Origin: an uncultured Lentisphaeria bacterium
GTDB lineage: Bacteria > Verrucomicrobiota > Lentisphaeria > JABSQK01 > JAJFLO01
Length of the DNA: 32,000 bases
Reading direction: 5' to 3'
NCBI GenBank assembly: GCA_951812855.1
Contig: OX638337.1
Coordinates: forward strand, 840,001-872,000
Shown here piece by piece: positions 16,607 through 32,000 of the stretch. Numbering within the stretch: the stretch's first letter is position 1; each line of letters opens with the position of its first letter. A program made the translations under genes and the position numbers. Below the pieces are notes generated by a model, which saw only the letters and a list, made by a program, of their open reading frames with translations, was not told where the DNA came from and searched no databases.

Positions 16607-16703
16607 AAATTTAATCGTATTGTGCGGAAGAAATCATAATAAATCAATTAGATGTCTGTAACAACAGAAATTGGAAATCAAATAATCCAGGTGCGGCAAC
16701 GAG

Positions 16704-17327
16704 TTATTCTTCTTTATTTTCTTCTACCTTTTTCTTTACAGACTCTAACTTTTCTTCATGTCCTTTATTTATCATGGAGAGGATTATATCAGTTATATCA
16801 TTTTCTGGTTTCAGGTAAATAAATGTCGGAAGCCGGTTTAGTGTGATACCTGAACTGTCTATGACTAAATCGTATCCCTGCTGTTCTGAATAAACTCTTA
16901 CAATATCCGATATTTCTTTTACGATTTTGTTCGTTAATTCCTCAAGACGGTTACGCATATCCATTTGTTTCTCTTTATTATATTCCTGGATTTGCTTTTT
17001 CTTTTCCTGGAGAAGCATAAATTTTGTCTGGGCTTCATCCCTCTTACCTTCGCGAACTTCCTCATTTAATGCAATATTTTGAGATTCATCCCGCAACCTG
17101 TTAAACGCATCTTCTAATAACTCTCGTTCTTTATCAAGATTATTTGCAAATTCTGAAAAAATCTCACCTTGTTTCTGAATCACTCTATTTTCTTTTATGG
17201 TTTTATAATACCCCTGAAAAATGGTGTCCATATCGATATATACCCAATTTAACGCTTGAGAACACACATTTGCGACTGCGAATAAAAATATTAAAGTGCT
17301 TAAAATCCCGCTTTTTGCCTTCGACAT
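16704..17327 (-). CDS. skp: Periplasmic chaperone Skp (OmpH family)
   Basis: I placed the start at the internal ATG (17325-17327), which gives a signal peptide MSKAKSGILSTLIFLFAVANVCSQA. The rest is coiled-coil and K/E-rich, and the length and the position upstream of lpxD fit Skp. The 40-codon upstream extension in the listed ORF (to 17447) looks non-coding. Confidence 0.8.
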   Translation of the reverse strand: MSKAKSGILSTLIFLFAVANVCSQALNWVYIDMDTIFQGYYKTIKENRVIQKQGEIFSEFANNLDKERELLEDAFNRLRDESQNIALNEEVREGKRDEAQTKFMLLQEKKKQIQEYNKEKQMDMRNRLEELTNKIVKEISDIVRVYSEQQGYDLVIDSSGITLNRLPTFIYLKPENDITDIILSMINKGHEEKLESVKKKVEENKEE

Positions 17328-17505
17328 TGTTGATGATCCTTTATATGATTTTTTAACCGTTGAACAGGTTAAATGCAACGTGATAAGTTCAAAACCCAAT
17401 ACTAGGTAGTATTCCTGATAATATGAACCGCATAAATAGTATATCAATTAATGCTATAAGCAAAATGAATCTTTGCTGAATATCAGAGTGTAAATTGAGG
17501 ATGAC

Positions 17506-17967
17506 TCATTTTGAAACTTGTTTTTTATAGAAACGAATAACTCTCTGGTCTGGCGATGCCGACTCAAAGTTAATAACAATGCAATCAGAATCCAGTAAAT
17601 TTGGAATACGATCCCCCCATTCAATAACGGTAATTGCGTTTTTGTTATTAATGAATTCGTCAATACCAAAGGCCAACGCACTATCTTCGGTCTCGATTCG
17701 ATACAGATCTAAGTGATAGAGAGTTTTGCCGGCACATTCATATTCCTGAATAATTGTAAAACTGGGACTGGTTATTGGTAATTCTACTCCGAAGCCACGT
17801 GCTATACCTCGGGTAAATACTGTTTTTCCAACTCCAAATTCACCACACAGGGCCAATGTTGTTCCACAAGTCAGAGTTTTAGCAAAACATGCCCCTTTTT
17901 TTTCTGTCTCATACTCTTGATTTGATATAAATTTCTCGATTAAATTTTCAGATTTAATAATGGTCAT
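17506..17967 (-). CDS. tsaE: tRNA t6A37 biosynthesis ATPase TsaE (YjeE)
   Basis: P-loop GEFGVGKTVFTRGIARG, SPSFTIIQEY and HLDLYR motifs; 153 aa. Confidence 0.88.
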   Translation of the reverse strand: MTIIKSENLIEKFISNQEYETEKKGACFAKTLTCGTTLALCGEFGVGKTVFTRGIARGFGVELPITSPSFTIIQEYECAGKTLYHLDLYRIETEDSALAFGIDEFINNKNAITVIEWGDRIPNLLDSDCIVINFESASPDQRVIRFYKKQVSK

Positions 17968-18095
17968 AACAGTTTTCCAATGTAAAAAAATATAACAAAT
18001 ATTTCATAACACGATTTAATCATGCACGTTGACATGTGATGTAGCAGTATTAGACTTCGGCAGTAATTATCGCTGACCTGAAAACTTATATTTAA

Positions 18096-18368
18096 ATGGT
18101 TATAATCTATAGTCACTTTTTAAAACAGAACATTGTCGTTGATACAGAAACATATCTTTTTTATGTCGGTCAACTGGTTCAATTTGAAGAACGTTCATTC
18201 CTGTTAAGTGATGTATTAATCATTGACACGACAATCATAAAAATTCCCGTTGAAAAATATTTAATTGAATGTTCAGAACAGGGTTTTTCACCGAGTCGGA
18301 AATCGATTTGGATAAATGCAAATAAAGTCATATCTATCTCGTTACTTTCCGATATCATCATCTTGTAA
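18096..18368 (+). CDS. Hypothetical protein (doubtful ORF)
   Basis: This 90-codon ORF is the only one in a 770-nt gap. No RBS, no recognisable motif. Confidence 0.25.
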   Translation: MVIIYSHFLKQNIVVDTETYLFYVGQLVQFEERSFLLSDVLIIDTTIIKIPVEKYLIECSEQGFSPSRKSIWINANKVISISLLSDIIIL

Positions 18369-18662
18369 CGCATTGAAATATCCTATGTCAGGAATACTTA
18401 TTTAAGTCATAACACTATACTTTTATTCTACAAATAAAACATCTAACACACTGAACACAATATCGTCGGTGAACCGTTAACAGACAGTTGGTGTATCACA
18501 CATAGTTTTGATTCTATTTTTTGCTGTGAAGTTGCCGAGCATCTCCCCGGACAGTCGATTATTCAGTAAAATTGCAAGAATATTGCACCAGGGGGGATAC
18601 GATTTCGAAGAGAAACGGAAAAACATAGAGTGTTCTTTTTGCAATTTTTTTGCATTTAGTCC

Positions 18663-18718
18663 TTGACAGTCCTAAAATAATGATTACTTTGAATTGAAAA
18701 TTAAGTAAGACTTATATT
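18663..18718 (+). promoter_or_regulatory. Candidate promoter plus Fur-box-like half site upstream of the MerC-like gene
   Basis: TTGACA at 18663-18668. ATAATGAT (18677-18684) equals positions 2-9 of the 19-bp Fur box consensus GATAATGATAATCATTATC and sits inside the palindrome TAATGATTA (18678-18686). An alternative promoter is TTGAAT (18689-18694), 18 nt spacer, TATATT (18713-18718). Such matches are weak evidence in AT-rich DNA. Confidence 0.3.
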
Positions 18719-18748
18719 CATCATAAAACACGTGCATTGATAAACACT

Positions 18749-19240
18749 ATGAAATCAACAGTATTTACGGATAAATTCCATGGAAGAATTGATAAATTTG
18801 GGGCTGTCGTCTCCTTCGCCTGTGCAGTCCATTGTATTGCAATTCCAATGTTAATTACTCTGCTTCCTTTATTAGGATTAAGTTTTTTATTAGATCAAAC
18901 GATCGAAAAGATTTTTTTAGTTTCCACCATTTGCCTTGCAGCCTTTAGTCTTTGCTGGGGATTTGTAATCCATAAAAAAATTCAGGCACTCTTAGTTTAT
19001 ACCGCCGCCGCATCAATGATCATTTGTGCAGTATTTATTCTTCCCCATCATCATGGTCATGATAACCACCAGAATTTAACAATGACTTCAGCGTCAGAAA
19101 CAGTGGTGTCACATCCGCAAAGTGATCCATTCGGGCTGCTTTTACTCCTTGCCGGCAGCAGTGCAATTGCTTTAAGCCATATCTTGAATCGTCATTTTTG
19201 CAAATCCTGCATCAAATGTAAAGAGCATCATCATTCATAA
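18749..19240 (+). CDS. MerC-like His/Cys-rich integral membrane protein (putative metal transporter)
   Basis: I placed the start at ATG 18749 (the listed ORF uses TTG 18737). DKFGAVVSFACAVHCIAIPMLITLLPLLG resembles the conserved first TM (CAxHC) of MerC-domain proteins, from memory. There are four hydrophobic segments, a loop LPHHHGHDNHQ and a C-terminus CKSCIKCKEHHHS. Confidence 0.7.
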   Translation: MKSTVFTDKFHGRIDKFGAVVSFACAVHCIAIPMLITLLPLLGLSFLLDQTIEKIFLVSTICLAAFSLCWGFVIHKKIQALLVYTAAASMIICAVFILPHHHGHDNHQNLTMTSASETVVSHPQSDPFGLLLLLAGSSAIALSHILNRHFCKSCIKCKEHHHS

Positions 19241-19422
19241 TAAATCGCCAGGGATTTCATACAGAATCCAATTTCATTTTAATTAATTGGGTATTGCAGG
19301 GCTGGTATCTTTAATGGAATTCATGCCTTCGCATACTAAAAAGAGTTTCAAACTGAGAAATACCTCACTGAATCATGAACCCAATGACGATCACAAACTA
19401 ATCCTTAATTCCTGATTATATT

Positions 19423-19440
19423 GTTTCACAAATATGAAAC
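19423..19440. promoter_or_regulatory. Inverted repeat GTTTCA-N6-TGAAAC upstream of the Fur-family gene
   Basis: Read directly: GTTTCA 19423-19428, spacer caaata, TGAAAC 19435-19440. It lies about 95 nt upstream of the ATG. Confidence 0.25.
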
Positions 19441-19479
19441 GGGTGATATAGAACCTCCTTTAGTTTTAATTATTATTTG

Positions 19480-19509
19480 ATTGTTACTGGAAAACAATTT
19501 GGATATAAA
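19480..19509 (+). promoter_or_regulatory. Candidate sigma70 promoter of the Fur-led cluster with an overlapping palindromic operator
   Basis: -35 TTGTTA (19481-19486), 17-nt spacer, -10 TATAAA (19504-19509), 24 nt before ATG 19533. The inverted repeat ATTGTT (19480-19485)-N7-AACAAT (19493-19498) covers the -35 and the spacer, which is the geometry expected for an autoregulated repressor. Confidence 0.4.
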
Positions 19510-19532
19510 TTGTGATTTTACTTTCATAAACT

Positions 19533-20030
19533 ATGGATACAGTCAAATCTAAAACGAGCTGCACCGATTATTACAGCCAAAAATGTGAACAGATTCTTAG
19601 AGATTCCGGTGCAAAAGTAACAAAGCCCAGACTTGCCGTAATAAAGCTGTTGTCTACGGCAACTGATTGCCTGTCTCCTCGAGAAATCCTTGAGGAGATT
19701 AATTTAACATCTCGCAAAAAATCAACCCAGGTCATTGATCAGGTCTCTGTATATCGAATTCTGGATGCATTTTTGAAACTCGGATTAGTTCATCAGGTAT
19801 TCCCGACAGGTGGCTATATTGCATGTACTCACCTAAACTGCAAAGCCGGATTACATATTCTAATTCATTGTACAGAATGTCACAATACCGAAGAAATTGA
19901 TATTCCGGGGGATATTTTTTCACCATTAAAATGGTATATAGAGCAACACAAAAGTTTTGTGCCAAAAAATCATTTATTCCAAATCGACGGTACTTGTATG
20001 CATTGTCGAAAACACGATGAAATTAATTAA
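19533..20030 (+). CDS. Fur-family metalloregulator (Zur/Fur/Nur-like; metal specificity unknown)
   Basis: Winged-helix part (KVTKPRLAVIKLLSTA...LSPREILEEI...VSVYRILDAFLKLGLVHQV) and two CxxC pairs (HCTECHN and GTCMHCRKH). The usual HHDH regulatory-site cluster is reduced to LHILIH. Confidence 0.85.
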   Translation: MDTVKSKTSCTDYYSQKCEQILRDSGAKVTKPRLAVIKLLSTATDCLSPREILEEINLTSRKKSTQVIDQVSVYRILDAFLKLGLVHQVFPTGGYIACTHLNCKAGLHILIHCTECHNTEEIDIPGDIFSPLKWYIEQHKSFVPKNHLFQIDGTCMHCRKHDEIN

Positions 20031-20056
20031 ATTTTTAATCTTAACCTTTACATATA

Positions 20057-21004
20057 ATGTGGCTGAGACAATACCGGGCAATCGTCCATAATTCATTTAT
20101 TGTCACGACAGGTGATCCTTTTTATTTGATTTTACATCTGACAGCATTATTTCTGATTGCCTTGTTAGGCTGTATACCGGGATTTACCTACGGTGAACAT
20201 ATGCAGTTATACCGGGATCAATGCCAGGTATTGATCTTTATGATTGGATGTCTTGGTATTACCTTTGGATTTACCCGGGTAATTACGGATGACATTCGAC
20301 GTGGTGCCGGAGCAATACTTCTAAGCCGCCCTATTAGCCCCACATGTCTGATTTTGGGTAAATGGAGTGGTGTATTTATCAGTATACTGCTTCTGCATCT
20401 ATCAGAATTATCAGGGTACTTATGGATATCCGAAGTTGCTTCGGATCCGGAATATTTAAATCTGCCGAGTTTTATGGTCTATCTAATTATTATTATTATG
20501 GCGTTACTCATCAGTGCAGGTCGTCATTATTTATTCGGCGGTTCATATGTATTGTATGCGAATATCATTTTAATTACTCTGATTGTTTTAGGAATCATTA
20601 CGAAAACGGTTATTCAGGGCAATCAGCACTTTGACTGGCCGGGGCTGCAAAGTGGTGCAGTTCTTTTGTTTGCTATCATCGTATTTTCTGCCCTGATATT
20701 ACCCGTTGCTGTTAAAACAGATTCTGTCATTGTCCTAAGTATTGGTGTCATTGCATTTTTCTTTGGCTTGATTTCAGAATATTTGATTAATATAATTTTA
20801 CTCAATAATCCCCTGGCAATTCTGGTAAAAGCAATTGTGCCAAACTGGCAAATCTTTTGGATTTCAGACAGGCTGGGCGAGGGATTAAGCATACCAATCA
20901 GCTTTTATGGATTATGTGCAGTTCAAGCAGCGGCATTTTTATGTGTCTGTGTTATAATTTCAACAATCCTGTATGAACGCATGGAGATTCAAGGAGAATC
21001 ATGA
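20057..21004 (+). CDS. ABC-2-type permease-like polytopic membrane protein (NosY/COG1277-like)
   Basis: Six or more hydrophobic segments. RRGAGAILLSRPISPTCLILGKWSG matches the E/R-G-T-x-E-x-LLS-x-P-(I/V)-S-R-x4-GK motif of ABC-2 permeases. The stop overlaps the next start (ATGA at 21001-21004). Confidence 0.7.
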   Translation: MWLRQYRAIVHNSFIVTTGDPFYLILHLTALFLIALLGCIPGFTYGEHMQLYRDQCQVLIFMIGCLGITFGFTRVITDDIRRGAGAILLSRPISPTCLILGKWSGVFISILLLHLSELSGYLWISEVASDPEYLNLPSFMVYLIIIIMALLISAGRHYLFGGSYVLYANIILITLIVLGIITKTVIQGNQHFDWPGLQSGAVLLFAIIVFSALILPVAVKTDSVIVLSIGVIAFFFGLISEYLINIILLNNPLAILVKAIVPNWQIFWISDRLGEGLSIPISFYGLCAVQAAAFLCVCVIISTILYERMEIQGES

Positions 21005-22884
21005 ATCAAAAACGCTATAACGGGAAATTATCGATTATTGCTGCAGGCATTCAATTGATTTTCTGTGTCGTCCTTTACGTCATCAGTTATCATATTGAAC
21101 CAGCGATTTCAGCTCACTTTATGGTTCAGGCAGCCAATCTCCTTTTTATATCAGCACTGATATCATTCACCTCATTTATTCATTCATATATGCAGAGCCT
21201 GGCTGATGAGGAAGTTGAAGAACTTAAAAAGTCAGACAAATCCGGCACACTTTTTGAAAATGAAGCAGATGGTTTATCAGGACGTTATAAAAATTCGAAT
21301 GCACAATTTAATAAGGTCATTCTTCCAGTCATAGTCATTTTAATAAGTATCATTGAATTTGCACTGACTTATAGTGTTATATCATTAGAATTAAACCATT
21401 CCCATACGATACTGCCCGAGAATCTCAATCCTCTACTGATCAGTGCCTCTGTTTTTATTTCATTTTCATGCTGCTTGTTTATCTTTGGTAAATACTGTAT
21501 GGGAATCGCTGAAGAGAGTAATAATATTTATATTATTCCTATAGGAAGTTACATGATTTTCTGCTCCTTCCTTTGCCTTGTTTCCGGAATCGCATCACTA
21601 TTGCATTTCTGGCAATTTGATAGTTTTACACGATCAGCTATGTGGTTGATGTGCGGACTTTCAATTATAATCGCTGTTGAACGACTCATCATTTTTATCA
21701 TAGAGAAATACCGCCCACAAACTCCTGATACGATCACATTATCTCTATATAACAGCCGGCTGCTGAGACTGATAAGCCAACCTCGCCGGATTGTTGCGAA
21801 CCTGGCAGAAGTCATTGAATATCAGTTCGGCGTTAATATTTCTGAACAGTGGCTGCAAAACTTTTGTTCAAGAATCTTTATTCCCTGCCTGTTTATACAA
21901 ATTATTTCCTTTTCTTTACTAACCTGCTTTACCTATGTAAATCCGGGAGAAACTGCACTTAAAGAATATATTGGTTCGACACAGATTAAAGAACTTTCGG
22001 CAGGACTTTATATCAATTATCCCTGGCCAATCAATCGTATTCACAGAATACCCACAAAGAAAATCTTTAACACATCAACGGGAACTGCACAAACAGAAAA
22101 ATTTCAAACCAACTCTGATGAAATATCCACTCCTGTTTTGTGGAATAACGATGCGTTTAATAATAATGTATTCCTGGTCGGGAGTAATAAATCTCAAATT
22201 CAACGTGCAAACCAAACATTCCGGATTCTGGATGTAAACCTGGTATCCGCAAGTATCAACGTACACTATAAAATCAATAACCCACTCACCTATTTTACGA
22301 TCCACAACGACAATGATGAATTACTCAAATTACTCAGCAGACAAGTCCTGAATCGCCATATCATTAATCATGATTTTTATGAATTGATTCGAAACACCTT
22401 TACTGATTTTTCGAAGCACTTAAAAAAAGATATTCAATCCATATCCAACACACATCAACTTGGCTGCGATATTATACATGTTGATGTAAGTTACATTCAA
22501 CCGCCACCGGCAGTCGCTAAATCATTTCAACAATTAATTTCGGCTCAACAATCAAAAATAAGCAATCAAATTCAGGCGCAAAAATACGCGATTCAAACAA
22601 TGGCCGAAGCAGATTCCGCAGTAAACCAAATCGTAAAACAGGCTGAAAGCGACACGGTTCTAACCACAAGTTTAGCAGAAGTTGAAAAGAACAATTACCT
22701 AAAACAACAGAAAATTTATAACAAATACCCCGAATTATATAAAACTCGTTTAACGATGGACACACTTGAATACTGGCTGCAAGACGTAAGAAAAATTGTA
22801 ATAAATTTCAAAAGTACGAAAGAAGTCATTAATCTTGAACTGAAGAAATCAACCCCGGATATCCTCGATATATCTGCAGACTGA
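21001..22884 (+). CDS. SPFH/Band-7 (HflK-like) protein fused to a ~310-aa polytopic N-terminal membrane domain
   Basis: Residues 1 to about 310 contain multiple hydrophobic segments. From about residue 315 an SPFH-like region follows (GETALKEYIGSTQIKELSAGLYINYPWPINRIHRIPTKK ... VDVSYIQPPPAVAKSFQQLISAQQSKISNQIQAQKYAIQTMAEADSAV), collinear with HflK (PGLH..PWPI..V; D(V/I)xPPxxVxxAFxxVxxAxQ). Confidence 0.8.
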   Translation: MNQKRYNGKLSIIAAGIQLIFCVVLYVISYHIEPAISAHFMVQAANLLFISALISFTSFIHSYMQSLADEEVEELKKSDKSGTLFENEADGLSGRYKNSNAQFNKVILPVIVILISIIEFALTYSVISLELNHSHTILPENLNPLLISASVFISFSCCLFIFGKYCMGIAEESNNIYIIPIGSYMIFCSFLCLVSGIASLLHFWQFDSFTRSAMWLMCGLSIIIAVERLIIFIIEKYRPQTPDTITLSLYNSRLLRLISQPRRIVANLAEVIEYQFGVNISEQWLQNFCSRIFIPCLFIQIISFSLLTCFTYVNPGETALKEYIGSTQIKELSAGLYINYPWPINRIHRIPTKKIFNTSTGTAQTEKFQTNSDEISTPVLWNNDAFNNNVFLVGSNKSQIQRANQTFRILDVNLVSASINVHYKINNPLTYFTIHNDNDELLKLLSRQVLNRHIINHDFYELIRNTFTDFSKHLKKDIQSISNTHQLGCDIIHVDVSYIQPPPAVAKSFQQLISAQQSKISNQIQAQKYAIQTMAEADSAVNQIVKQAESDTVLTTSLAEVEKNNYLKQQKIYNKYPELYKTRLTMDTLEYWLQDVRKIVINFKSTKEVINLELKKSTPDILDISAD

Positions 22885-22980
22885 CTGGATTTAGATATCA
22901 AGAAAATTTCACCCCTTATGACAAAAATTAACGATTAATAGACAGTAAAGCAACAGGGATCTAAAACCTGCGACCCGCTA

Positions 22981-23000
22981 TACCGTCAATTGATAACAAT
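22981..23000 (+). repeat. 20-nt repeat copy A (TACCGTCAATTGATAACAAT), 19/20 identical to 28011-28030
   Basis: Read directly. It is intergenic and ends 15 nt before the GTG start at 23016. Confidence 0.8.
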
Positions 23001-23015
23001 CTGGAGAATTTTGAC

Positions 23016-23900
23016 GTGAAATCAAAAATGCCAACACTAATTGCTTTTTTAGTCGCCGTTTTATTCATTTTTATACTATGTGCATACCAATTAAGAATTT
23101 CTGAATCGGTAATCGCAACAACATTTGGAAAACCAAAATTAGTTGACCAGCCAGGACTTCATTGGAGATTTCCCTGGCCTATTCAAAAAATAACCCGCTA
23201 CGACAATCGTAAACAGCTGCTCAAACTAAACCCGGGAGAAACTGTAACAAACGATAATATTAACCTTATCGTTGAATTATTCTGTACCTGGAATATTGAG
23301 GATCCGATACTTTTTTTTAACAGTGTCGGCAATTTTTTTGAGGCAGAATCAATTCTAAAAAGCCTGATTACCAGTGAAAGAGAATCTGTATTTAGAAAAC
23401 ACAGCATGCTGGACATCGTTAAATTGGGAAAAGCAGATGAAACATTGTCAGTCATTGAATCCGAGCTGCAAACTGGTATCAGTCAAAAGAGTCGGAACAA
23501 TTATGGCATTAATATTGATTTCGTCGGTATTGCTCAAATCAATCTGCATGAATCGAATACTACGAGCATTTTCAATAAAATGATCCGGGAACAGGAGAAA
23601 TTGGCTGCGGAGATCCGTTCTGAAGGGGAAAAAAATGCTAAAATCATTAGAGATAATGCGAATAATATGAAAGCACAGAAATTGGCAAGAGCCGAGGCAG
23701 AAGCCAAACGTATTCGTGGAGAAGCATTAATCAAAGCAGCAGAACAATACGAAAAATTTAATGAAAATCTGGACTTTGCAATTTTCCTGAGAAAACTCGA
23801 CGCACTGGAAGAAACGATGAAAACAAAAACAACCATTATCCTTGACCCTGAAACACCTCCATACGATTTACTTAAATATAAATATAACAGGAATAAGTAA
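23016..23900 (+). CDS. HflC-like SPFH/Band-7 membrane protein
   Basis: GGAGA RBS sits 8 nt before GTG 23016. There is an N-terminal TM (TLIAFLVAVLFIFILCAY), then GKPKLVDQPGLHWRFPWPIQKITRYD, and a C-terminal coiled-coil (AAEIRSEGEKNAKIIRDNANNMKAQKLARAEAEAKRIRGEALIKAAEQY...FAIFLRKLDALEETMK), collinear with HflC. Confidence 0.85.
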   Translation: MKSKMPTLIAFLVAVLFIFILCAYQLRISESVIATTFGKPKLVDQPGLHWRFPWPIQKITRYDNRKQLLKLNPGETVTNDNINLIVELFCTWNIEDPILFFNSVGNFFEAESILKSLITSERESVFRKHSMLDIVKLGKADETLSVIESELQTGISQKSRNNYGINIDFVGIAQINLHESNTTSIFNKMIREQEKLAAEIRSEGEKNAKIIRDNANNMKAQKLARAEAEAKRIRGEALIKAAEQYEKFNENLDFAIFLRKLDALEETMKTKTTIILDPETPPYDLLKYKYNRNK

Positions 23901-23931
23901 TAGTAATCAAAAGAAACAGGTTCAGATCCAA

Positions 23932-24981
23932 ATGACAAAAAAAGAGACAATTCAATCACCACCAAACAATGACGTGAATCCAGGTCGCGGTATTGCCGCA
24001 ATTCAGGATTCGTTAACAGTTGTGTTTACAGCGGTTCGTATTTTGATTGTGATATTAATCATCGCTTTTTTTGTAAGCGGCGTTAGAAATATTGAACAGT
24101 TTGAACAGGCAATTGTGATACGGTTTGGAGCACTTCATGGATCTGTCAAAGATGAAGCAGGAATGGTTTTTGCCCTGCCCTATCCAATTGATGAAATTAT
24201 AAAAGTACCTGCAAAACGAACTCAAATTATTAAATCCGATACGTATTGGTACAAACAAACTGATGAAGAGTCGAAAACGGGTAATTCTTCCGATATCCCA
24301 ATGTTCCTAAAACCCGGAGCAGACGGCTATTTAATTACCTCAGATCTAACTATATTACATGCAAAGTGTAATTTGAAATACAGAATCAATCACCCCCTGG
24401 ATTATGTATTCGAGTTTAACGATATCAACCAGTTTATACGGTATAGTCTTGATAACGCACTATTAAAATCTGTTTCCAAATTTAACAGTGAAAAAATCAT
24501 GAAAAACAGAAAGATTTTGAATGATTCTGTTTTTAGATTATTACAGCAGACAATTAGTAAATCAGAACTGGGAATTGAAATTGACCCCTTAGACATGCAA
24601 TTGAGCTGGCCCCGTCAGGTAACCAATGCAATTAACACAGTCACCCGGGCAAGTCAAGAGTATCAGGAAGAAATGGCCAGTGCAAACGTTTTTGATGATG
24701 ATCAAAAAAATAAAGCTGAGAGTCAATCATCCCAGATTGAATTGGCAGCACATACATGGGCAACAAAAAAAATAAGCAAAGCCAAAGCTGATGCTGCTAC
24801 GTTTAGAAAACTGTATCCGCTGTACAAAACCAATCCAAACATAATTAGTCAAATATTATACCAGGATAGAATTAAAAAGATCATGGCAAATGTTGATGAA
24901 ATATTTATCATTGATCCCTCTGAAAACAGGGAAATCCGAATCAATTTGCCAAGAAGTACAAATCGTTCAAAAAATAACTGA
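23932..24981 (+). CDS. Divergent HflK-like SPFH/Band-7 membrane protein
   Basis: I placed the start at ATG 23932 (MTKKETIQSPP...), because the listed 23842 start would overlap the preceding gene by 59 nt. There is a TM (VFTAVRILIVILIIAFFV), followed by NIEQFEQAIVIRFGALHGSVKDEAGMVFALPYPIDEIIKVPAKRTQ and a C-terminal helical region. Confidence 0.75.
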   Translation: MTKKETIQSPPNNDVNPGRGIAAIQDSLTVVFTAVRILIVILIIAFFVSGVRNIEQFEQAIVIRFGALHGSVKDEAGMVFALPYPIDEIIKVPAKRTQIIKSDTYWYKQTDEESKTGNSSDIPMFLKPGADGYLITSDLTILHAKCNLKYRINHPLDYVFEFNDINQFIRYSLDNALLKSVSKFNSEKIMKNRKILNDSVFRLLQQTISKSELGIEIDPLDMQLSWPRQVTNAINTVTRASQEYQEEMASANVFDDDQKNKAESQSSQIELAAHTWATKKISKAKADAATFRKLYPLYKTNPNIISQILYQDRIKKIMANVDEIFIIDPSENREIRINLPRSTNRSKNN

Positions 24982-24986
24982 TTTTT

Positions 24987-26852
24987 ATGAAACAAAAAAT
25001 CATATGTTTAATCGTTGGTTTAGTATTTATAATTAATTCATTCTTAGCAGCCCGACTTATAAATGATCATAATTTTGTATCGTCAATAAGTGCATTTATT
25101 GCTATCATCGTTCTGATTATACCGATCTTGAAAATTGTTATCAATGATATACGATCCGGTTCAATGAAAATGCATGAATTAGCCATTTTGGCTATTTTAG
25201 GAAGTTGTGTTCAAGGAGATTTAAAAACATCAGCCTGCATTGCACTATTTATTTTGTTTTCAATAATTATTGAAACCAGCTCAGCAAGCGGAGCTGAAAT
25301 CAGGCTGGAATCACTGGCCAAAATTACTCCTGGAAAAGCGTGCAGACTGTTAGATGACGGTTCAGAAGAGGAAGTCAGTGGACATTTACTTAAACCAAAT
25401 GATGTAATTCGGGTAAAACCCGGGGAAAATATTCTGGCTGACGGCATAATATTAAAGGGAATTACATCAATAAATGAGGCAAATATTACGGGTGAATCGT
25501 TGCCGGTAGACAAATTAGTTGATGAACAGGTGTTTGCCGGAACATCCAATTTGAGCGGCGTTATTGAGGTCAAAGTAGAGAAAGCCGGTGACGATACTGC
25601 CATCGGCAGAGTAAAGGAACTGATATTAAAAGCACAGGAAAGCAAACTTCCCTTTGTACGAATGATAGATGAATACGCACGCTTCTATATGCCAGTTGTA
25701 TTAATGTTAGCAGGCATTGTCTTATACTTTAACCGCCATGAACCTGATGGACTTGATCGGGTCATCGCCCTTTTGGTCGCGACCTGCCCTGTTGCACTCA
25801 TACTGGCAACTCCTGCGGCAGTTGTCGCATCCTTATCTGCAGCAGCCAGATTAGGAATCCTGTTCAAAGATGTAAATGATATTGAAGCGATGGCACGCAC
25901 CGATGCTGTTATTTTCGATAAAACCGGAACGCTGACAACGGGTATCCTTGAGGTAACTCGTCTAACACCCAATGACGGTATTGAACCTTCAGAACTGCTT
26001 GCAACCGCCGCAGCCGCAGAATCTGGCAGTAATCACCCCGCAGCAAAAGCCGTTATCAAACTGGCTGAATCAGTTCATGTTTCCATTGAAAATTCTCATT
26101 TGCTGCATGAAGAACCCGGACGCGGCGTCAAAGCAACGTGTGACAATAACGATGAGATACTTGTTGGAAACTTAAATTGGATGAATGAAAATAAAATATT
26201 ACGTAATGATTTTTTAGATATTGATGACGCTGAAACATCCGGAATGAGTCTTCTGTTTGTAACAAAAAACGGGAAATCGCTTGGATGGATTGGATTAAGC
26301 GATAAAGAACGGGAACAGGCTGCTGAATGTCTGACCGACTTATCACAATCTGGCGTCTCCCACATTGCAATGATATCCGGCGATCGAAATACGGTCGTAA
26401 AAAACGTTTCAGAAAAATTAGATATAGCAAATTCGCTGGGAGAATGTTCGCCGCTTGATAAAGTTCATTACGTGGACCGAATCAAAGAACAAGGGTATCA
26501 GGTCGCATTTATCGGCGACGGAGTAAATGACGGTCCGGCACTGGCAAAGAGTCACATAGGAATTGCTATGGGTGCCACAGGTATTGATGTTGCAGTTGAA
26601 AGTGCTGCGATCGCTCTAATGAACAACGAATTGAATCGAATACCTTTTTTACTCAGACTTGCTAAAAAAATGAAAATTACCATAATTCAAAACTTTTTAA
26701 CAGGAGGTATCATTATCATTGGTGGCATATCATTGAGTGCAATGGGATATTTATCTCCGATCATCGCAGCATTATCCCAATTAATCGGTGCAATTTTTGT
26801 TGCAATGAACAGTGCAAAACTCATAAAATCAGGTGAAGAATTGTATGTATGA
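24987..26852 (+). CDS. P1B-type (heavy-metal) P-type ATPase without an N-terminal metal-binding domain; TM6 motif CPV
   Basis: TGES (ANITGESLPVDK), DKTGTLT (D codon 25917-25919), HP motif (SNHPAAKAV) and GDGVNDGPAL. About eight hydrophobic segments. No GMxCxxC/HMA domain. The TM6 sequence is LLVATCPVALILATPAAV (CPV at 25785-25793) where CPC is usual. Confidence 0.9.
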   Translation: MKQKIICLIVGLVFIINSFLAARLINDHNFVSSISAFIAIIVLIIPILKIVINDIRSGSMKMHELAILAILGSCVQGDLKTSACIALFILFSIIIETSSASGAEIRLESLAKITPGKACRLLDDGSEEEVSGHLLKPNDVIRVKPGENILADGIILKGITSINEANITGESLPVDKLVDEQVFAGTSNLSGVIEVKVEKAGDDTAIGRVKELILKAQESKLPFVRMIDEYARFYMPVVLMLAGIVLYFNRHEPDGLDRVIALLVATCPVALILATPAAVVASLSAAARLGILFKDVNDIEAMARTDAVIFDKTGTLTTGILEVTRLTPNDGIEPSELLATAAAAESGSNHPAAKAVIKLAESVHVSIENSHLLHEEPGRGVKATCDNNDEILVGNLNWMNENKILRNDFLDIDDAETSGMSLLFVTKNGKSLGWIGLSDKEREQAAECLTDLSQSGVSHIAMISGDRNTVVKNVSEKLDIANSLGECSPLDKVHYVDRIKEQGYQVAFIGDGVNDGPALAKSHIGIAMGATGIDVAVESAAIALMNNELNRIPFLLRLAKKMKITIIQNFLTGGIIIIGGISLSAMGYLSPIIAALSQLIGAIFVAMNSAKLIKSGEELYV

Positions 26853-26889
26853 ATCCGTATTAGCAGATCTGACACGATCCATGTTATTC

Positions 26890-26917
26890 ATTAACTCGTG
26901 CAGTTAATTTATATTTT
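26890..26917 (+). terminator. Weak AT-rich hairpin plus T-tract between the ATPase and the ABC ATPase gene (possible attenuator or partial terminator)
   Basis: ATTAACT (26890-26896), loop cgtgc, AGTTAAT (26902-26908), followed by ttatatttt. The stem is only 7 bp and almost all A/T. Confidence 0.3.
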
Positions 26918-26944
26918 ACCAAAATAATAAACGAAATCCCAATC

Positions 26945-28132
26945 ATGACAGAACGGAATGACGACATTGTCGTCAAAGCACAGGGAATAAGCAAAATTTT
27001 CAAGGACTTTTGGGGGCGGAAAAAAATAGCAGCCCTAACCGATGTTGACATTGTTATACAAAAAAATTCTATCTTTGGATTATTAGGACCAAACGGTGCA
27101 GGAAAGTCAACTTTAATCAAAATTATTCTTGGTCATCTATATCCCTCTAAAGGACTGATTAACGTTCTGGGAAAAAGCCCGGGAAATATCGAAATCAAAT
27201 ATCAAATTGGTTATCTTCCTGAACGATCTTATATGTACAAAAATCTGACTGCACTTGAAACGTTGACTTATTTTGGTGCACTGCTGAACCTGAGTAAAGA
27301 TGTCATTAAAACTCGGAGTCAACAACTCCTGGAAATGGTAGGACTTGATTCTGCAAAAAAACGAATGATCGGTGAATTTTCGCATGGGATGACCCGTCGA
27401 ACGGGCTTAGCTCAGGCGTTATTGAATGATCCCGATTTTTTAATCCTTGATGAACCGACTGCAGGGTTAGATCCCGTCGGTTGCAGGGAAGTAAAAGATT
27501 TAATTCTGACTCTTGGGAAACGAGGGAAAACAATTCTCTTAACAAGCCACCTGCTGGCGGATGTTGAGGATGTTTGCGATGAATTATTAATGTTATACGG
27601 AGGAAAAATACAGTCATCGGGAACTGTTTCCGAACTTTTAACAAACGCAGAAATAACACGCCTGGAATTTCCAAATATCTCTGAGGACAAACTGAATCAA
27701 ATCAAGACTTCATTGAATCAGGAAATTCCCAATGAGCACATTAATATTTCATCCCCGAAAGAATCATTAGAGAGTTATTTCCTGAAGACAATCTCAGCAG
27801 GCAGTCGCAGTTCAGTTGAAAATTATGGTGCGGGAATCGGTAAAGGAGTCGCGGAATATCTTCAGGATGAGAACTATGAATTTAACGATGTAACAGTAAC
27901 AACGCCATCTGTGCCGGATAACAGTTTATCTGAATCAATTGACACATCGACACTGGATAATTTAACAGAGAAGAAACACTCCTCCGGCGAAACACCGCAG
28001 CAGGACTATTTACCATCAATTGATAACAATGCCCTTGCAGATCTTTCCCGGGATCAAACAAAAAGTGCAGAGTCAGAAGCAGATAACAGCAAAAAGATCG
28101 ACCAATCTAAACTCGACGGTCTTACTAAATAG
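26945..28132 (+). CDS. ABC transporter ATP-binding protein with a ~130-aa acidic/Ser-rich repeat-containing C-terminal extension
   Basis: Walker A GLLGPNGAGKST, Q-loop GYLPER, degenerate signature FSHGMTRR, Walker B FLILDEPTAGLD, H-loop LLTSHLL. The tail from about residue 265 is low-complexity and carries three ID-x3-L-x2-L-(T/S) repeats. Confidence 0.92.
   Translation: MTERNDDIVVKAQGISKIFKDFWGRKKIAALTDVDIVIQKNSIFGLLGPNGAGKSTLIKIILGHLYPSKGLINVLGKSPGNIEIKYQIGYLPERSYMYKNLTALETLTYFGALLNLSKDVIKTRSQQLLEMVGLDSAKKRMIGEFSHGMTRRTGLAQALLNDPDFLILDEPTAGLDPVGCREVKDLILTLGKRGKTILLTSHLLADVEDVCDELLMLYGGKIQSSGTVSELLTNAEITRLEFPNISEDKLNQIKTSLNQEIPNEHINISSPKESLESYFLKTISAGSRSSVENYGAGIGKGVAEYLQDENYEFNDVTVTTPSVPDNSLSESIDTSTLDNLTEKKHSSGETPQQDYLPSIDNNALADLSRDQTKSAESEADNSKKIDQSKLDGLTK
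28011..28030 (+). repeat. 20-nt repeat copy B (TACCATCAATTGATAACAAT), 19/20 identical to 22981-23000
   Basis: Read directly. It lies inside the ABC ATPase tail and encodes (Y)LPSIDNN. Confidence 0.8.
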
Positions 28133-28133
28133 A

Positions 28134-29468
28134 ATGCGGAATATTTTAACGACGGCAAAAATCACTATTTTGGTTTGTATCAGAAATGGTACATTTTTTG
28201 GCATTTTGACTTTAATTGCTGGAATATCATCGTTTATATTTGCCATATCCACAAGCGATAACACAATATTGAATGAACTTCAACTCCGCATTCAATACAG
28301 TTATACGCTTACCTACAGTCTGCTGACATTAATAATTATTTCCCTATCCTGTTTTACAATACGAAGCCAAATTGACGGGAGACAAATTCACATGCTCACC
28401 TCATTTCCAATTCGACGGCGTGATATATGGTTGGGGAAATGGTTGGGCTTGGCAGTCATCGCACTGGTAAGTGAACTCATATTGGTTTTATCCATTGCAA
28501 CTTGTGCTCATTTTTATACGCGTACATTCAAGGCTGAAGATGTGAGTTCAGCACAAGAATTCTATAAAAAAATAAACTGTGAAGTCAGGCCTGATATACC
28601 TGATTTTAATGCATTGACCAGTGAACGCATTAGTACATTGATTAATGAACAAAAACTCGATCCCGAAATGATTGACAAGGAAGTTTGGAAGAAAAACTAT
28701 GAGATATTGCGCCGTTCCGAACAGCTCATAAAACCCAATGGTGAAAAGACCTGGTCATTTGATCTGAAGAATAAACCGAAAAAAGGTGAGTTTGTAGATT
28801 TCAGGTTCAGGATGTACGCAGAAAAACGCCGTAACCTGATTCGAGGCACATGGTTACTTTCAGCCGAAGGAAAAGTTGAGAGTTTTAAACAAAATTTTGA
28901 GTGTTATCCTTATAGCTTCACCACAATTCGTATTCCCGTAAGTCAAATTCCCGATTCAGGCAAATTTCAGTTAACCCTGAACGGGCAGAATGACTCAGAC
29001 ATAATTATAAACTTCAACAATGACCTGGCTTTATTTTATGAAGATGGATCAATCATATTTAACTTGATTAAAATAATATCTGCTCATTTTATTCATATGA
29101 GTGTAACGGTTGCTGTCGGACTCACTGCGGGTGTTGCATTTTCTTTCCCGGCAGCATCCTTTCTCTCTATAACACTCTATTTTTTATCCGCATCTTCCGG
29201 CTATTTTTCAAGTATTATCACAGATTTATTAGAAGGATATCATATCTCGATTAGTGATAAAATCTCAGCTGGCTTAATCAGCAGTGCGTTGTGGCTTGCA
29301 AAAGGGTTGCAGGCACCGGATGCAATATCAAAATTAAGCAGTGGAATTTCAATTCCAATTTCCGACTTACTCATTCATTGGCTGCCTGCGATCTCAGTAT
29401 ACGGTTTTGTCACCTGTTTATTAGGTATATGTATCTTAACGAGGAAAGAATTAGACCGGTTTGTTTAA
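28134..29468 (+). CDS. ABC-2-type permease-like membrane protein with a ~190-aa extracytoplasmic insertion
   Basis: I placed the start at ATG 28134, 1 nt after the ATPase stop. The listed TTG 28020 start would overlap the ATPase gene by 113 nt. HMLTSFPIRRRDIWLGKWLG is paralogous to the motif in the 20057 protein. A beta-rich soluble insert between TM3 and TM4 runs from about ...FKAEDVSS to LALFYEDGS. Confidence 0.7.
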   Translation: MRNILTTAKITILVCIRNGTFFGILTLIAGISSFIFAISTSDNTILNELQLRIQYSYTLTYSLLTLIIISLSCFTIRSQIDGRQIHMLTSFPIRRRDIWLGKWLGLAVIALVSELILVLSIATCAHFYTRTFKAEDVSSAQEFYKKINCEVRPDIPDFNALTSERISTLINEQKLDPEMIDKEVWKKNYEILRRSEQLIKPNGEKTWSFDLKNKPKKGEFVDFRFRMYAEKRRNLIRGTWLLSAEGKVESFKQNFECYPYSFTTIRIPVSQIPDSGKFQLTLNGQNDSDIIINFNNDLALFYEDGSIIFNLIKIISAHFIHMSVTVAVGLTAGVAFSFPAASFLSITLYFLSASSGYFSSIITDLLEGYHISISDKISAGLISSALWLAKGLQAPDAISKLSSGISIPISDLLIHWLPAISVYGFVTCLLGICILTRKELDRFV

Positions 29469-29489
29469 CCCTGTCAGGACAATCTATTC

Positions 29490-31070
29490 ATGCGACGAAT
29501 TATACAATTAATCATTGTTTCATTTGCATTTGTAATCCTGGTTTATAACGCGAAACGAATATACACCTTTCAAGATCAGAATCAGTACAATCGAATGGTC
29601 AATAATACAGATATTCCTCCCTCTTTAGCATTGACAACTTTTGCGTTAGGTCCGCTAAAGGCAATTATCGTAGATTCACTGTGGCGGCGGGCAATTCAAC
29701 AACAGGATAAAGGAGAATATTTTGATGCATTGCAACTTGCTGACTGGATTACGAAACTGCAACCGACGTTTTCATCAGTATGGGCATTCCATGGTTGGAA
29801 CATGTCATATAATATCGCTCATGATTTCGCCGATGCACACGATCGTTGGAACTGGATCAATCATGGAATTGAACTACTTCGCGATGAAGGATTAAAGTAT
29901 AATCCGGGGGATAAGATCATCCGGCATGAACTCGCCAGAATTTTCTATAACCGCATTGGCGGAAAAATCGATGAGGGATCAGAATATTTTAAAAATCAGT
30001 GGGCATTTAAAATGATGGAATATTTCGATTACAGCTCGCAGCAGGAAATTATAAATCTAAGCAATGCTGCAAAAAATTTAGATGAACTTAAAGAACGATA
30101 TGGCGTTGAAGGATATCTTCGGGAAACGCTTAAATCAGGAGTCGATATATTAAACTTTAAAGCAAATCCACCCTCATTTACACCGATCAAGGTGAAACTG
30201 CCGCTGGAAGAGCAAAATCAGGCTGTTCACGAAATCTACTATTATTTTAAACGAAATAAAATTGAACGTGAATTAAAATTAGACGTTCAACGAATATTGT
30301 TCATAAATAAACAATACGGACCGTTAGACTGGCGACTGCATCAGGCTCATACGATTTATTGGGCAGCAGAAGACAATTTTGAAGATTTTATGAAAGGAGG
30401 CGTTAATTACTCAAAAATTGTCAGGCAGAGTATGATTGAATCATTTTATGAAGGAAAATTATTTCATGACCCGGTAAAAAATATCATTTCAAGGACAAAT
30501 AATCTGGAAATTATTGGTCGAATTCACGATTATATCGACTATCTGATCGAACATGATTTCAATTCAGATATTGATTCAATACATAAAAAATTTTTAGAAA
30601 ATGCCGTTACTGTATTATATAACTATAATCGAAATGAAGAAGCCGGCGAACTGTTCAAACACTATAAGGAGCATTATTTACAGAAAAATCCTATAGATTA
30701 TGAAGCATTTATTGTTAAGAGTATTGAGACATCGTTATATTCTGGAACGACGGAGAAAATAAAATACTATATTGAATCGGTACTCTATCAAAGCTTTCAA
30801 TGGCTTGATCATGGTGATTATGATAGATCAAACGGAAATCTAAATTTAGCGAAATTATTGTGGAAGCGTTATCAATTGAAGTTCGAAGAGAATCCAGCAA
30901 AAAAATTGGGCCCGTTTAGTGAAATCGTTGAGATCGTTAAAACAAAATATATTTCTGAAAAAAATATTCAAAGTGACAAATTTTCTATAAAAATAGATCA
31001 ATCTAAAACACGTAAACCTAAAAAGGTAAAAATTGGTTCGTATCATGAGGATGATCATCACGATCATTAA
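29490..31070 (+). CDS. N-terminally anchored, Trp-rich helical protein of unknown function with a His-rich C-terminus
   Basis: TM (IIQLIIVSFAFVILVY), then LGPLKAIIVDSLWRRAIQQQDKGEYFDALQLADWITKLQPTFSSVWAFHGWNMSYNIAHDF. I recall this block from conserved hypothetical proteins but cannot name a family. The protein ends ...GSYHEDDHHDH. Confidence 0.8.
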   Translation: MRRIIQLIIVSFAFVILVYNAKRIYTFQDQNQYNRMVNNTDIPPSLALTTFALGPLKAIIVDSLWRRAIQQQDKGEYFDALQLADWITKLQPTFSSVWAFHGWNMSYNIAHDFADAHDRWNWINHGIELLRDEGLKYNPGDKIIRHELARIFYNRIGGKIDEGSEYFKNQWAFKMMEYFDYSSQQEIINLSNAAKNLDELKERYGVEGYLRETLKSGVDILNFKANPPSFTPIKVKLPLEEQNQAVHEIYYYFKRNKIERELKLDVQRILFINKQYGPLDWRLHQAHTIYWAAEDNFEDFMKGGVNYSKIVRQSMIESFYEGKLFHDPVKNIISRTNNLEIIGRIHDYIDYLIEHDFNSDIDSIHKKFLENAVTVLYNYNRNEEAGELFKHYKEHYLQKNPIDYEAFIVKSIETSLYSGTTEKIKYYIESVLYQSFQWLDHGDYDRSNGNLNLAKLLWKRYQLKFEENPAKKLGPFSEIVEIVKTKYISEKNIQSDKFSIKIDQSKTRKPKKVKIGSYHEDDHHDH

Positions 31071-31110
31071 GTATAAAAAGAAGTTTGTTAATTATAGCGT
31101 TATTCCGATG

Positions 31111-31128
31111 GATAACAGAACAGTTATC
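31111..31128. other. Palindrome GATAAC-N6-GTTATC, 40 nt after the last gene of the cluster
   Basis: GATAAC 31111-31116, spacer agaaca, GTTATC 31123-31128. The ends resemble the outer arms of a Fur box (GATAAT...ATTATC). It could also be a short hairpin, but no T-tract follows. Confidence 0.3.
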
Positions 31129-31439
31129 TGAATCATCAGACGGAAATAGTCCGGAAGGGAAAAATCATCAAAACTTGCTCCAATGACTATTGAGACGTGC
31201 TGTATTCTGATCTGCAGCGAAGCAGGCACCACAGGCGGGATAAAATACAGGACAGAAATCAAATCATTTCAAATTCACTTAAATTTGACAAAACAGAGAT
31301 CGTAAAAGGTGTTGAAGACCGAATCAGCTGTTAAAAAATTTGAGTTAATCTACATCCCCTCCAATATTGAAAAAATTATGGAGCCGGTTCGGACCGGAAA
31401 GTATGATTACCAGCCTATTTGAAAACTCTAAGGATTTAA

Positions 31440-31657
31440 TCCAGGATAATTGATGATGATGAACTTCAACGTAATACCTTAAAGAAAATTCTTGAGGGAG
31501 AGCGGCATTTAGCGTTGATATCTCCTGTGATAAAATGGATGCACCGGAGCATCTGAAAGAGAATGAAGTCCAACTGATTCTCACAGACATTTACATGCCC
31601 GAAATGGATTAAAAATTGATCCTCCCACAAAGGCTTAAAAAAGTCAAAATCATTTGA
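31440..31657 (+). pseudogene. Response-regulator receiver-domain remnant (no start codon, one frameshift, in-frame stop, truncated)
   Basis: Frame A reads (S)RIIDDDELQRNTLKKILEGERHLALIS and continues to a stop at 31554-31556. Frame B from about 31523 reads SCDKMDAPEHLKENEVQLILTDIYMPEMD*, with TAA at 31610-31612 where the conserved G is expected. It then continues KLILPQRLKKVKII* to 31657. Joined, these give the canonical receiver N-half (IIDDDE...DLILTDIxMPxMDG). Confidence 0.55.
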
Positions 31658-31733
31658 TTTTACATAAAACAAACATCATCGATCACCCGCCGAATAAAGC
31701 AGATCCACCCCAAAAAACCAACGTCTCCCATTT

Positions 31734-31807
31734 TGGCTGCCCGACCAGGGCTCGAACCTGGACTTACGGAATCAGAATCCGACGTGCTACCATTACACCA
31801 TCAGGCA
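31734..31807 (-). tRNA. tRNA-Gln (anticodon CUG), 74 nt with encoded CCA
   Basis: The reverse complement is TGCCTGA TG GTGT AATGGTA GCAC G TCGGA TTCTGAT TCCGT AAGT CCAGG TTCGAGC CCTGG TCGGGCA G CCA. It folds with a 7-bp acceptor stem (one G-U pair), a 4-bp D stem, a 5-bp T stem with a TTCGAGC loop, and an anticodon loop TTCTGAT, giving CTG. The U1-A72 pair and G73 discriminator are as in bacterial tRNA-Gln. The outermost anticodon-stem pair is a T-T mismatch. Confidence 0.93.
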
Positions 31808-32000
31808 ATACTCCAGCCTCATCATATAAATTATTACTACATAAACCCGTAAAAAATAGTATGAATTCTTCTTTTTGCTAACTGCCCAATGTTACTTTTT
31901 TTATTACATCACAGAGAAGAATAAAATTAAATTGAAACATCATAATATGATTCGATGTGACTAATTTATACCTGCCTGCCCTTCCTTCACATGATTTAAA

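Follow-up and report, generated by a model that had tools for sequence, protein, structure and literature searches.

A conserved Verrucomicrobiota gene cluster joining three SPFH proteins, a P1B-type ATPase and ABC-2 components: a candidate SPFH-organised metal-transport assembly

The contents and role of SPFH rings in bacteria are, to our knowledge, a long-standing question, and the clients of HflK/C beyond FtsH are mostly unknown. In Escherichia coli, the hflK and hflC genes sit in the hfq-hflX operon and ftsH is encoded elsewhere. Cages of HflK/HflC with FtsH have been described by cryo-electron microscopy (PMC12048511), and HflK/C also affects the stability of further proteins in E. coli (PMC12005517). 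In mycobacteria, the PacL scaffolds are required for the stability and clustering of P1B-type pumps, and PacL1 carries the C-terminal metal-binding motif DLHDHDH (PMC13460109). Here we analyze a stretch of 32,000 nucleotides (the window) from an uncultured Lentisphaeria bacterium, corresponding to positions 840,001 to 872,000 of contig OX638337.1, a 1.94-Mb circular-looking metagenome contig, in which nine open reading frames (ORFs), all on the forward strand, span positions 19533-31070. Eight of these genes constitute a conserved unit, composed of two occasionally separated sub-modules, that is kept in order across the Verrucomicrobiota and that joins three SPFH proteins to a P1B-type ATPase (hereafter the pump), to the components of an ABC-2 transporter and to a helical-repeat protein. 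We propose, with a probability of roughly 0.45, that this unit encodes an SPFH-ring-organised metal-transport assembly functionally similar to the mycobacterial effluxosomes.

The enzymatic parts of the cluster all come from known superfamilies, and what is new is two protein families and the phylum-wide cluster itself. An earlier note on this DNA, written from the sequence letters, did not recognize the gene combination as a described system, and we likewise found no description of it in the literature. The cluster resembles the E. coli HflK/HflC-FtsH system in that two of its three SPFH proteins have profiles pointing to the HflC and HflK types, each with one transmembrane (TM) helix at the N-terminus, an SPFH domain predicted to lie in the periplasm, and a C-terminal part that is long and helical; by this likeness a hetero-oligomeric ring may be expected here as well. 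It differs from that system in having a third subunit, an HflK paralogue (K') fused to a conserved six-helix membrane domain, in genes that are tied, in an operon-like arrangement, to those for the pump, the ABC-2 components and the helical-repeat protein, and in window copies that score below the equivalog cutoffs. With the mycobacterial effluxosomes (PacL1-3 with CtpC, CtpG and CtpV), the cluster shares the co-encoding of a P1B pump with membrane scaffold proteins and, in the reading proposed here, the concept of a metal-efflux platform that depends on a scaffold, and the tail of the 526-aa helical-repeat protein in the window (HEDDHHDH) resembles the DLHDHDH motif of PacL1. The PacL proteins are, however, small single-TM DUF1490 proteins of Actinobacteria that lack an SPFH domain, and the cluster adds an ABC-2 transporter; a Pfam search for DUF1490 gave no match in any of the nine window proteins, and we regard the resemblance as one of functional analogy, not of homology.

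Two further systems share single elements with the cluster. Its permeases match the same Pfam family (ABC2_membrane_2, PF12679) as the NosDFY-type ABC-2 machinery, the multicopper-enzyme maturation permease family, which includes NosY, from an ABC-2 system in copper handling. Unlike NosDFY, the cluster contains no NosD or NosL equivalent and encodes two different permeases, one of them with a large loop, together with an ATPase that lies below all specific equivalog cutoffs. In SPFH-NfeD operons (stomatin/flotillin), an SPFH gene is similarly co-encoded with a polytopic membrane partner, but a Pfam profile search detected no NfeD domain in any of the nine proteins of the cluster, where the membrane domain is instead fused to an SPFH protein and falls outside the described families.

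Conservation of the cluster was assessed through a scan covering one genome per species, which gave 448 stretches with a gene related to that of the 627-aa protein. The 80 best of these were compared with the nine window proteins. These 80 loci, labelled almost all as Verrucomicrobiota (Limisphaerales, Pedosphaera and Verrucomicrobiales), were chosen by similarity to the 627-aa protein, and the synteny counts for individual genes (Table 1) are hence conditional on its presence. The genes are colinear on one strand in all 80 of the loci. ORF-level junctions across loci have medians of 2-36 nt, with 67-94% of them at or below 50 nt and 7-36% overlapping, and the junction between permease 1 and K' shows a median gap of 7 nt. 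Leaving aside L001, the locus most closely related to the window, protein identities amount to only approximately 20-30% for the SPFH proteins and the permeases, with 41-50% in the case of the pump and 42-58% in that of the ABC ATPase, and the flanking genes vary by locus, those upstream encoding an ankyrin-repeat protein, AhpC, PrmA, a SurA-like protein or PdxA. The gene order kept across the phylum argues that the eight genes work together. The idea that the genes form a conserved system, put forward in the earlier note, is thus upheld by an eight-gene synteny that persists down to about 20-50% identity, with tight junctions and unconserved flanks. The note also proposed a neighbourhood search seeded with the 627-aa and 526-aa proteins. 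The same neighbours recur with both seeds: the 627-aa protein gave the 80 loci described above, and two look-ups seeded on the 526-aa family and based on independent gene calls recovered the same eight-gene cluster.

Table 1. Position of the cluster genes and of associated features in the window, evidence for their assignment, and presence of each gene among the assessable loci
Feature	Coordinates	Strand	Evidence or remark	Presence in assessable loci
MerC-family membrane protein, 167 aa	18737..19240	+	PF03203 MerC 67.3 bits; outside conserved core	
Fur-family regulator, 165 aa	19533..20030	+	PF01475 35.5 bits	
ABC-2 family permease 1, 315 aa	20057..21004	+	First gene of conserved core	67/67
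627-aa protein	21001..22884	+	Band_7 at residues 313-529	79/79 (by construction, seed protein)
N-terminal membrane domain of 627-aa protein	21001..21936	+	Hydropathy, Lys/Arg distribution, alignment	
HflK-type SPFH module of 627-aa protein (K')	21937..22884	+	Band_7 52.9 bits; predicted periplasmic	
HflC-like SPFH protein, 294 aa, GTG start	23016..23900	+	Band_7 82.6 bits	73/73
HflK-like SPFH protein, 349 aa	23932..24981	+	Band_7 57.9 bits	70/70
P1B-type ATPase, 621 aa	24987..26852	+	TIGR01525 486 bits	65/65
ABC ATPase, 395 aa, ABC-2 (DrrA/GldA/NodI-like) type	26945..28132	+	ABC_tran 99.5 bits	52/61
ABC-2 family permease 2, 444 aa	28134..29468	+	ABC2_membrane_2 weak, 23.2 bits	50/59
526-aa helical-repeat (TPR-like) protein	29490..31070	+	Predicted structure; no Pfam/NCBIfam match	44/54

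Several of the loci show variants of this organization. One of them has a beta-galactosidase gene inserted after the pump. The inserted genes examined in the variant loci L006 and L032 comprise this gene and unknown ORFs, and they give no hint of a function. Insertions of 1.8-2.6 kb between the SPFH genes are tolerated in some Limisphaerales loci. In L006, extra ORFs of 575, 327 and 166 aa (11783-13510, 15208-16191 and 16211-16711), none of them with a Pfam match, lie between the three SPFH genes, and L025 and L067 present a similar spacing, for three Limisphaerales chromosomes in all; these extra ORFs may be additional lineage-specific components. The locus of an unclassified bacterium (L041, 8943-19038) carries a compact variant of the cluster, with many overlapping genes, a shorter ABC ATPase (332 aa, devoid of the C-terminal tail) and a shorter helical-repeat protein (427 aa), and in L083 a sigma-54 activator (11781-13157) lies directly downstream of the cluster.

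The packing of nine same-strand genes reported in the earlier note is borne out by an ORF scan of the window, which yields, in order, junctions of 26 nt, an ATGA overlap at 21001-21004, and gaps of 131, 31, 5, 92, 1 and 21 nt. The sequence read directly shows that in the ATGA overlap the stop codon of permease 1 overlaps the start codon of the 627-aa gene. Two of the starts admit alternatives: an independent gene call places the start of the HflC-like gene at 23028, extending the preceding gap to 143 nt, and a longer ORF from a TTG at 23842 is possible for the HflK-like gene, for which the ATG at 23932 fits the lengths of the orthologues. Every gene in the cluster is under purifying selection, with ratios of nonsynonymous to synonymous substitution rates (dN/dS) between the window and L001 of 0.04-0.12 for all nine genes and for the MerC gene. 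Computed per 1-kb segment, the GC content of the cluster is 0.32-0.41 and does not leave the range seen in the rest of the window, and a scan of positions 18000-32000 for promoter and terminator consensus sequences was uninformative, returning counts equal to the shuffled expectation. Profile searches confirmed the FUR, Band_7, P1B, ABC_tran and MerC assignments and provided that of ABC2_membrane through orthologues, and the protein details first read from the letters (a polytopic N-domain, a P1B ATPase lacking the HMA domain, a permease insert, a repeat tail on the ATPase and a His-rich tail) also proved accurate.

All three SPFH proteins exceed the Pfam gathering score for SPFH/Band 7 (PF01145, 23.6 bits). 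By profile, the 294-aa protein appears to be of the HflC type and the 349-aa protein of the HflK type. The NCBIfam equivalog cutoffs are 134.4 bits for hflC (TIGR01932) and 159.4 bits for hflK (TIGR01933); the window HflC-like protein scores 118.9 bits on the former, and the HflK-like protein and K' score 132.1 and 82.1 bits on the latter, all of them below cutoff. Among HflC orthologues, those of L041 (147 bits) and L009 (136 bits) pass, and two with 126 and 119 bits do not; among HflK orthologues, that of L041 passes with 169 bits and the others score 148, 128 and 97 bits, and the K' orthologue of L007 reaches 145 bits on the hflK profile. The HflK-like paralogue and the last 290 residues of the 627-aa protein give an end-to-end alignment (22% identity, E 2e-9). 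Family-mean hydropathy places a single N-terminal TM helix at residues 8-25 of the HflC-like protein and at residues 32-49 of the HflK-like protein. In the 627-aa protein, family-averaged hydropathy and Lys/Arg counts predict approximately seven TM helices ahead of the SPFH domain and a cytoplasmic N-terminus, with six helices, Lys/Arg-rich cytoplasmic segments at residues 61-107 and 233-292, and TM7 (residues 296-312) directly preceding the SPFH domain. Given the predicted topologies of the three proteins, all three SPFH domains would reside on the same side of the membrane, in the periplasm, as they do in HflK/C.

The N-terminal domain of the 627-aa protein (N-domain) contains a motif that is strictly conserved in the family alignment (YRP...Y-x-SR...QP...YQFG-x-x-S-x-x-W). 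At E<=1e-3 the domain occurs in at least 697 representative clusters; among the 150 matches listed, almost every one is a protein of approximately 590-800 aa in which the domain is N-terminal, and the fusion is therefore its stable form. Searches with the N-domain profile against Pfam and the PDB matched no family, which suggests that the N-domain is an undescribed domain of a large unannotated family. Structure prediction for the 627-aa protein from a four-sequence alignment produced an unusable model, with a predicted local distance difference test score (pLDDT) of 43.6. Residues 64-131 of the N-domain (window positions 21190-21393) give a marginal match to yeast Vph2 (8eat_B, E 4.8e-4, 68 residues). 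Vph2 is a V-ATPase assembly factor residing in the membrane, and the match is probably compositional, though curious beside a P-type ATPase.

The pump scores well above the subfamily cutoff of TIGR01525 (346 bits) and also passes that of the cadmium family TIGR01512, with 391 bits, and it falls below the cutoff of the NCBIfam copper family. Its PDB matches include LpCopA (3rfu, 1.9e-81) and ZntA (4umv), its catalytic motifs (DKTGTLT, TGES and GDGVNDGPAL) are intact, and a Pfam profile search identified no HMA domain in the window copy. To compare ligands, motifs were surveyed in 69 sequences, comprising the window copy and 68 locus orthologues. The TM4 motif is CPC in 66 of the 69 sequences, with CPV in the window and CPI in L001. 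At the TM6 position where CopA has MxxSS, the orthologues have HNxGS and the window has SQLIG, QL replacing HN in the window and in L001 alike. Motif comparison found neither of the CopA ligands YN and MxxSS in the pump, and the ligand set of the window copy is not known to fit any described P1B subgroup signature. Most of the inspected orthologues start with MQVTSLLSR, followed by a His/Asp-rich stretch (HDHDH) that ends in CxxCGHDHEH, whereas the window pump starts directly at TM1 and lacks this N-tail, as does the pump of L001 (11559-13424). The dN/dS of 0.057 between these two genes nonetheless indicates that the pump gene is maintained despite the loss of ligands and tail. For the typical orthologues, sequence features point to divalent transition metal exporters, because they combine a His/Asp-rich N-tail, CPC and a TM6 His with a cadmium-family score above cutoff.

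Pfam returns no match for the window copy of permease 1, and 18 of 21 of its orthologues match ABC2_membrane_4/2. The match of the window permease 2 to ABC2_membrane_2 is below the gathering score, and the family is matched by 21 of 23 orthologues. Comparison of the two permease profiles with hhalign gives a probability of 96% (E 3e-9), and hydropathy reveals a loop of approximately 190 aa between TM3 and TM4 of permease 2. The ABC ATPase scores 198 bits on DrrA, 181 on GldA and 142 on NodI, reaching none of the respective cutoffs (312.45, 402.6 and 424). It bears a conserved C-terminal extension, composed of PTQNLESYFL, TSGATSG and YLRG elements, a variable linker and a KANEKLSSLL-type end, that in the window contains short repeated D/N-x-x-L-x-x-L motifs. 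The two permeases should not be read as two separate transporters: both belong to the ABC-2 type and are related to each other, and there is a single ABC ATPase, so the most economical reading would be one heteromeric ABC-2 transporter made up of one ATPase and two different, related permeases. Permease 1 is encoded at the opposite end of the cluster, by a gene overlapping that of K', and this would tie the putative transporter to the SPFH set. An anti-phage defence function was also considered for the cluster and rejected, as PADLOC provides only generic ABC ATPase similarity, for one protein.

No Pfam or NCBIfam match was obtained for the 526-aa protein. Its family comprises 1319 or more database clusters. 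The 120 that were listed are all devoid of Pfam domains and, where they bear a name, are designated hypothetical proteins. The AlphaFold2 model of the protein (pLDDT 83.2, predicted template modelling score 0.80) is a confident one and has a TM helix at the N-terminus (residues 2-30) and another long helix (residues 44-73), followed by an all-alpha solenoid. A Foldseek search of the PDB with this model returned weak, generic TPR/solenoid matches (E>=3e-3, template modelling score <0.3) and no specific family. On the strength of the model, the protein is predicted to be anchored in the membrane and to consist of all-alpha, TPR-like helical repeats, and it represents an undescribed family. Its C-terminal tail is His/Asp-rich only in the window (HEDDHHDH) and in L001 (GDHHDH; gene at 16025-17605), most relatives having Pro/Ala-rich tails, and the dN/dS between these two genes is 0.067. 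Judging from these alignments, in this lineage a His-rich element appears to have disappeared from the pump and to have appeared on the 526-aa protein, a shift that would make sense if the solenoid were cytoplasmic. The window lineage can therefore be viewed as a natural experiment, in which the pump lost its metal ligands and its His-rich tail, yet remains under purifying selection, and a partner gained a His-rich tail.

In the SPFH-organised assembly that we propose, K' and the HflC-type and HflK-type proteins would form a mixed HflK/C-like ring, which would corral both the pump and the ABC-2 transporter within a single patch of membrane and stabilise them there. Bridging of the components would fall to the helical-repeat protein, possibly via the tail of the ABC ATPase, and the unit would act as a dedicated platform for metal export or metal handling. 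In the window lineage, the unit would have been placed behind a Zur-like regulator, the pump ligands would have been remodelled (CPC to CPV, HN to QL, loss of the N-tail) and a His/Asp-rich tail would have arisen on the helical-repeat protein. We infer from the arrangement as a whole that the SPFH ring would scaffold or gate the transporters. The genome context names candidate SPFH clients, a metal pump and an ABC-2 transporter, across a whole phylum; if the proposal is true, it would extend the idea of a scaffolded efflux platform, so far limited to the actinobacterial PacL proteins.

A number of points weigh against this proposal. Co-transcription of the cluster genes and physical association of their products are predicted from the gene arrangement, and the 131-nt and 92-nt gaps in the window could hold internal promoters. 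The synteny figures are conditional, the loci having been selected via the 627-aa protein. In a clade of seven loci and in two more loci, the genes for the ABC ATPase, permease 2 and the 526-aa protein do not adjoin the first five, and the two halves of the cluster are therefore separable. The window pump lacks the very ligands that suggest a metal in its orthologues. Finally, the second hydrophobic helix of the 526-aa protein is weak, and the helical-repeat domain could lie on either side of the membrane. A stricter form of the proposal holds that the Verrucomicrobiota possess a dedicated, FtsH-independent, three-paralogue HflK/C-type cage, in which one subunit would contribute the new six-helix domain. 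Its obligate clients would be a P1B pump for divalent metals and the heteromeric ABC-2 transporter, linked to each other by a new helical-repeat adaptor. We regard this form as a tentative possibility; if it is true, no SPFH cage before it would have had transporter clients that are defined genetically.

We consider it somewhat unlikely that the HflC-like and HflK-like proteins are instead the canonical FtsH modulators of the phylum, with FtsH encoded elsewhere. The cluster would then connect the turnover or quality control of membrane proteins by FtsH either to clients, namely the pump and the ABC-2 transporter, or to adaptors, namely K' and the helical-repeat protein, and there would be no FtsH-independent scaffold. 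Such a role would agree with window scores that lie just below the equivalog cutoffs (119 against 134 bits and 132 against 159 bits) and with the L041 and L009 orthologues that pass them. The earlier note had drawn on the absence of the usual SPFH partners, and the observation itself holds, as a search of 10 kb around the cluster revealed no FtsH-like ORF, either in the window or at the 80 loci, and none of the nine proteins matched NfeD. The argument built on it is weak, however, because E. coli itself keeps ftsH apart from hflKC, and canonical modulators would be expected to show no ftsH within 10 kb. It has moreover been reported that small partner proteins shield other bacterial metal-ion transporters from degradation (PMC13460109), which is consistent with FtsH modulators having such clients. 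Taken alone, this explanation leaves unaccounted for the phylum-wide locking of a pump, an ABC-2 transporter and two undescribed families to hflKC. The scaffold and FtsH-modulator readings are also compatible, in that the ring could control the access of FtsH to the pump.

The genes might alternatively be co-regulated neighbours that form no joint complex. An SPFH set that organises membranes in general would then share an ancestral operon with the metal pump and with an ABC-2 exporter whose substrate (a lipid, a glycan or a peptide) is unrelated, all of them being required in the same circumstances. We judge this unlikely. The detachment of the last three genes from the first five, the 1.8-2.6 kb insertions between SPFH genes in some Limisphaerales and the beta-galactosidase insertion after the pump all agree with loosely connected functions, and ABC-2 transporters of the DrrA, GldA and NodI type usually export non-metal substrates, going by their family names. 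Yet permease 1 is encoded far from its presumed ATPase and is translationally coupled to K' through the ATGA overlap (median gap across loci, 7 nt), an arrangement that is hard to explain without interaction, and a gene order kept at 20-30% identity amid unconserved flanks would be unusual for unrelated functions. A chance juxtaposition in this genome, or a mobile or defence island, has next to no probability, being refuted by the synteny, with the cluster found in 80/80 related loci from diverse Verrucomicrobiota, and running counter to the purifying selection on all genes and to a GC content within the range of the window.

The Fur-family protein at the head of the window cluster passes the gathering score of PF01475 (23.1 bits) and contains the CxxC pairs CTEC and CMHC. 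Its best NCBIfam match is Zur (PRK11639, E 3e-11), with 43 bits against a cutoff of 167; it meets none of the Zur, Fur and PerR equivalog cutoffs (146-220 bits), and its best PDB matches are Zur-type (7dh7, 4mtd and 2o03). By rank only, the regulator thus seems most similar to Zur. The description of the cluster as led by a Fur-family gene does not extend beyond the immediate lineage of the window, since L001 is the one locus out of 60 assessable ones that has the regulator, and the upstream genes elsewhere are unrelated. Any metal-responsive control would therefore be confined to the window lineage, and the metal theme advanced in the earlier note retains its basis in the pump orthologues, with their His/Asp N-tails, CPC and TM6 His. 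No Fur-like or MerC product was present among ten upstream ORFs scanned from eight loci, MerC not having been sought upstream elsewhere. In L001, a MerC-sized ORF of 166 aa (4917-5417) occupies the same position ahead of the Fur-family gene, and the MerC protein of the window is 86% identical to that of L001 at the amino acid level, with a dN/dS of 0.06. The Fur/Zur-like gene is a lineage-specific add-on that lies outside the conserved core, and MerC appears to be another; in this lineage MerC may serve the cluster as a partner for metal uptake that is under regulation. An inverted-repeat search of the intergenic regions returned nothing upstream of the Fur-family gene. By eye, a palindrome (GTTTCA-N6-TGAAAC) can be found at 19423-19440, approximately 93 nt upstream of the Fur-family start; we do not claim it as a Fur/Zur operator, the upstream region not being conserved in L001.

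The remainder of the window contains a few elements of possible interest. A gene for the divalent-ion tolerance protein CutA1 (14353-14670, reverse strand) lies approximately 5 kb upstream of the cluster and is metal-related, possibly by coincidence. In the region of approximately 2.9 kb at 6612-9523, the ORFs of both strands do not exceed 102 aa and no Rfam or tRNA match occurs; the region could represent decayed genes in this genome, which is AT-rich and small (1.94 Mb). At the start of the window, positions 102-1076 on the forward strand encode the C-terminal part of an Omp85/BamA-type protein, and a Skp (OmpH)-LpxD pair is found 15 kb away, at 15536-17447 on the reverse strand; bamA, skp and lpxD usually constitute one neighbourhood, which appears to be split in the window. 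A PAS histidine kinase and a sigma-54-dependent response regulator form an NtrB/NtrC-like pair at 2272-4964 on the forward strand. At the downstream boundary of the cluster, approximately 660 nt past its last gene, the window has a tRNA-Gln (CTG) gene (31734-31807, reverse strand), and L001 has an HDOD/HD-domain gene instead.

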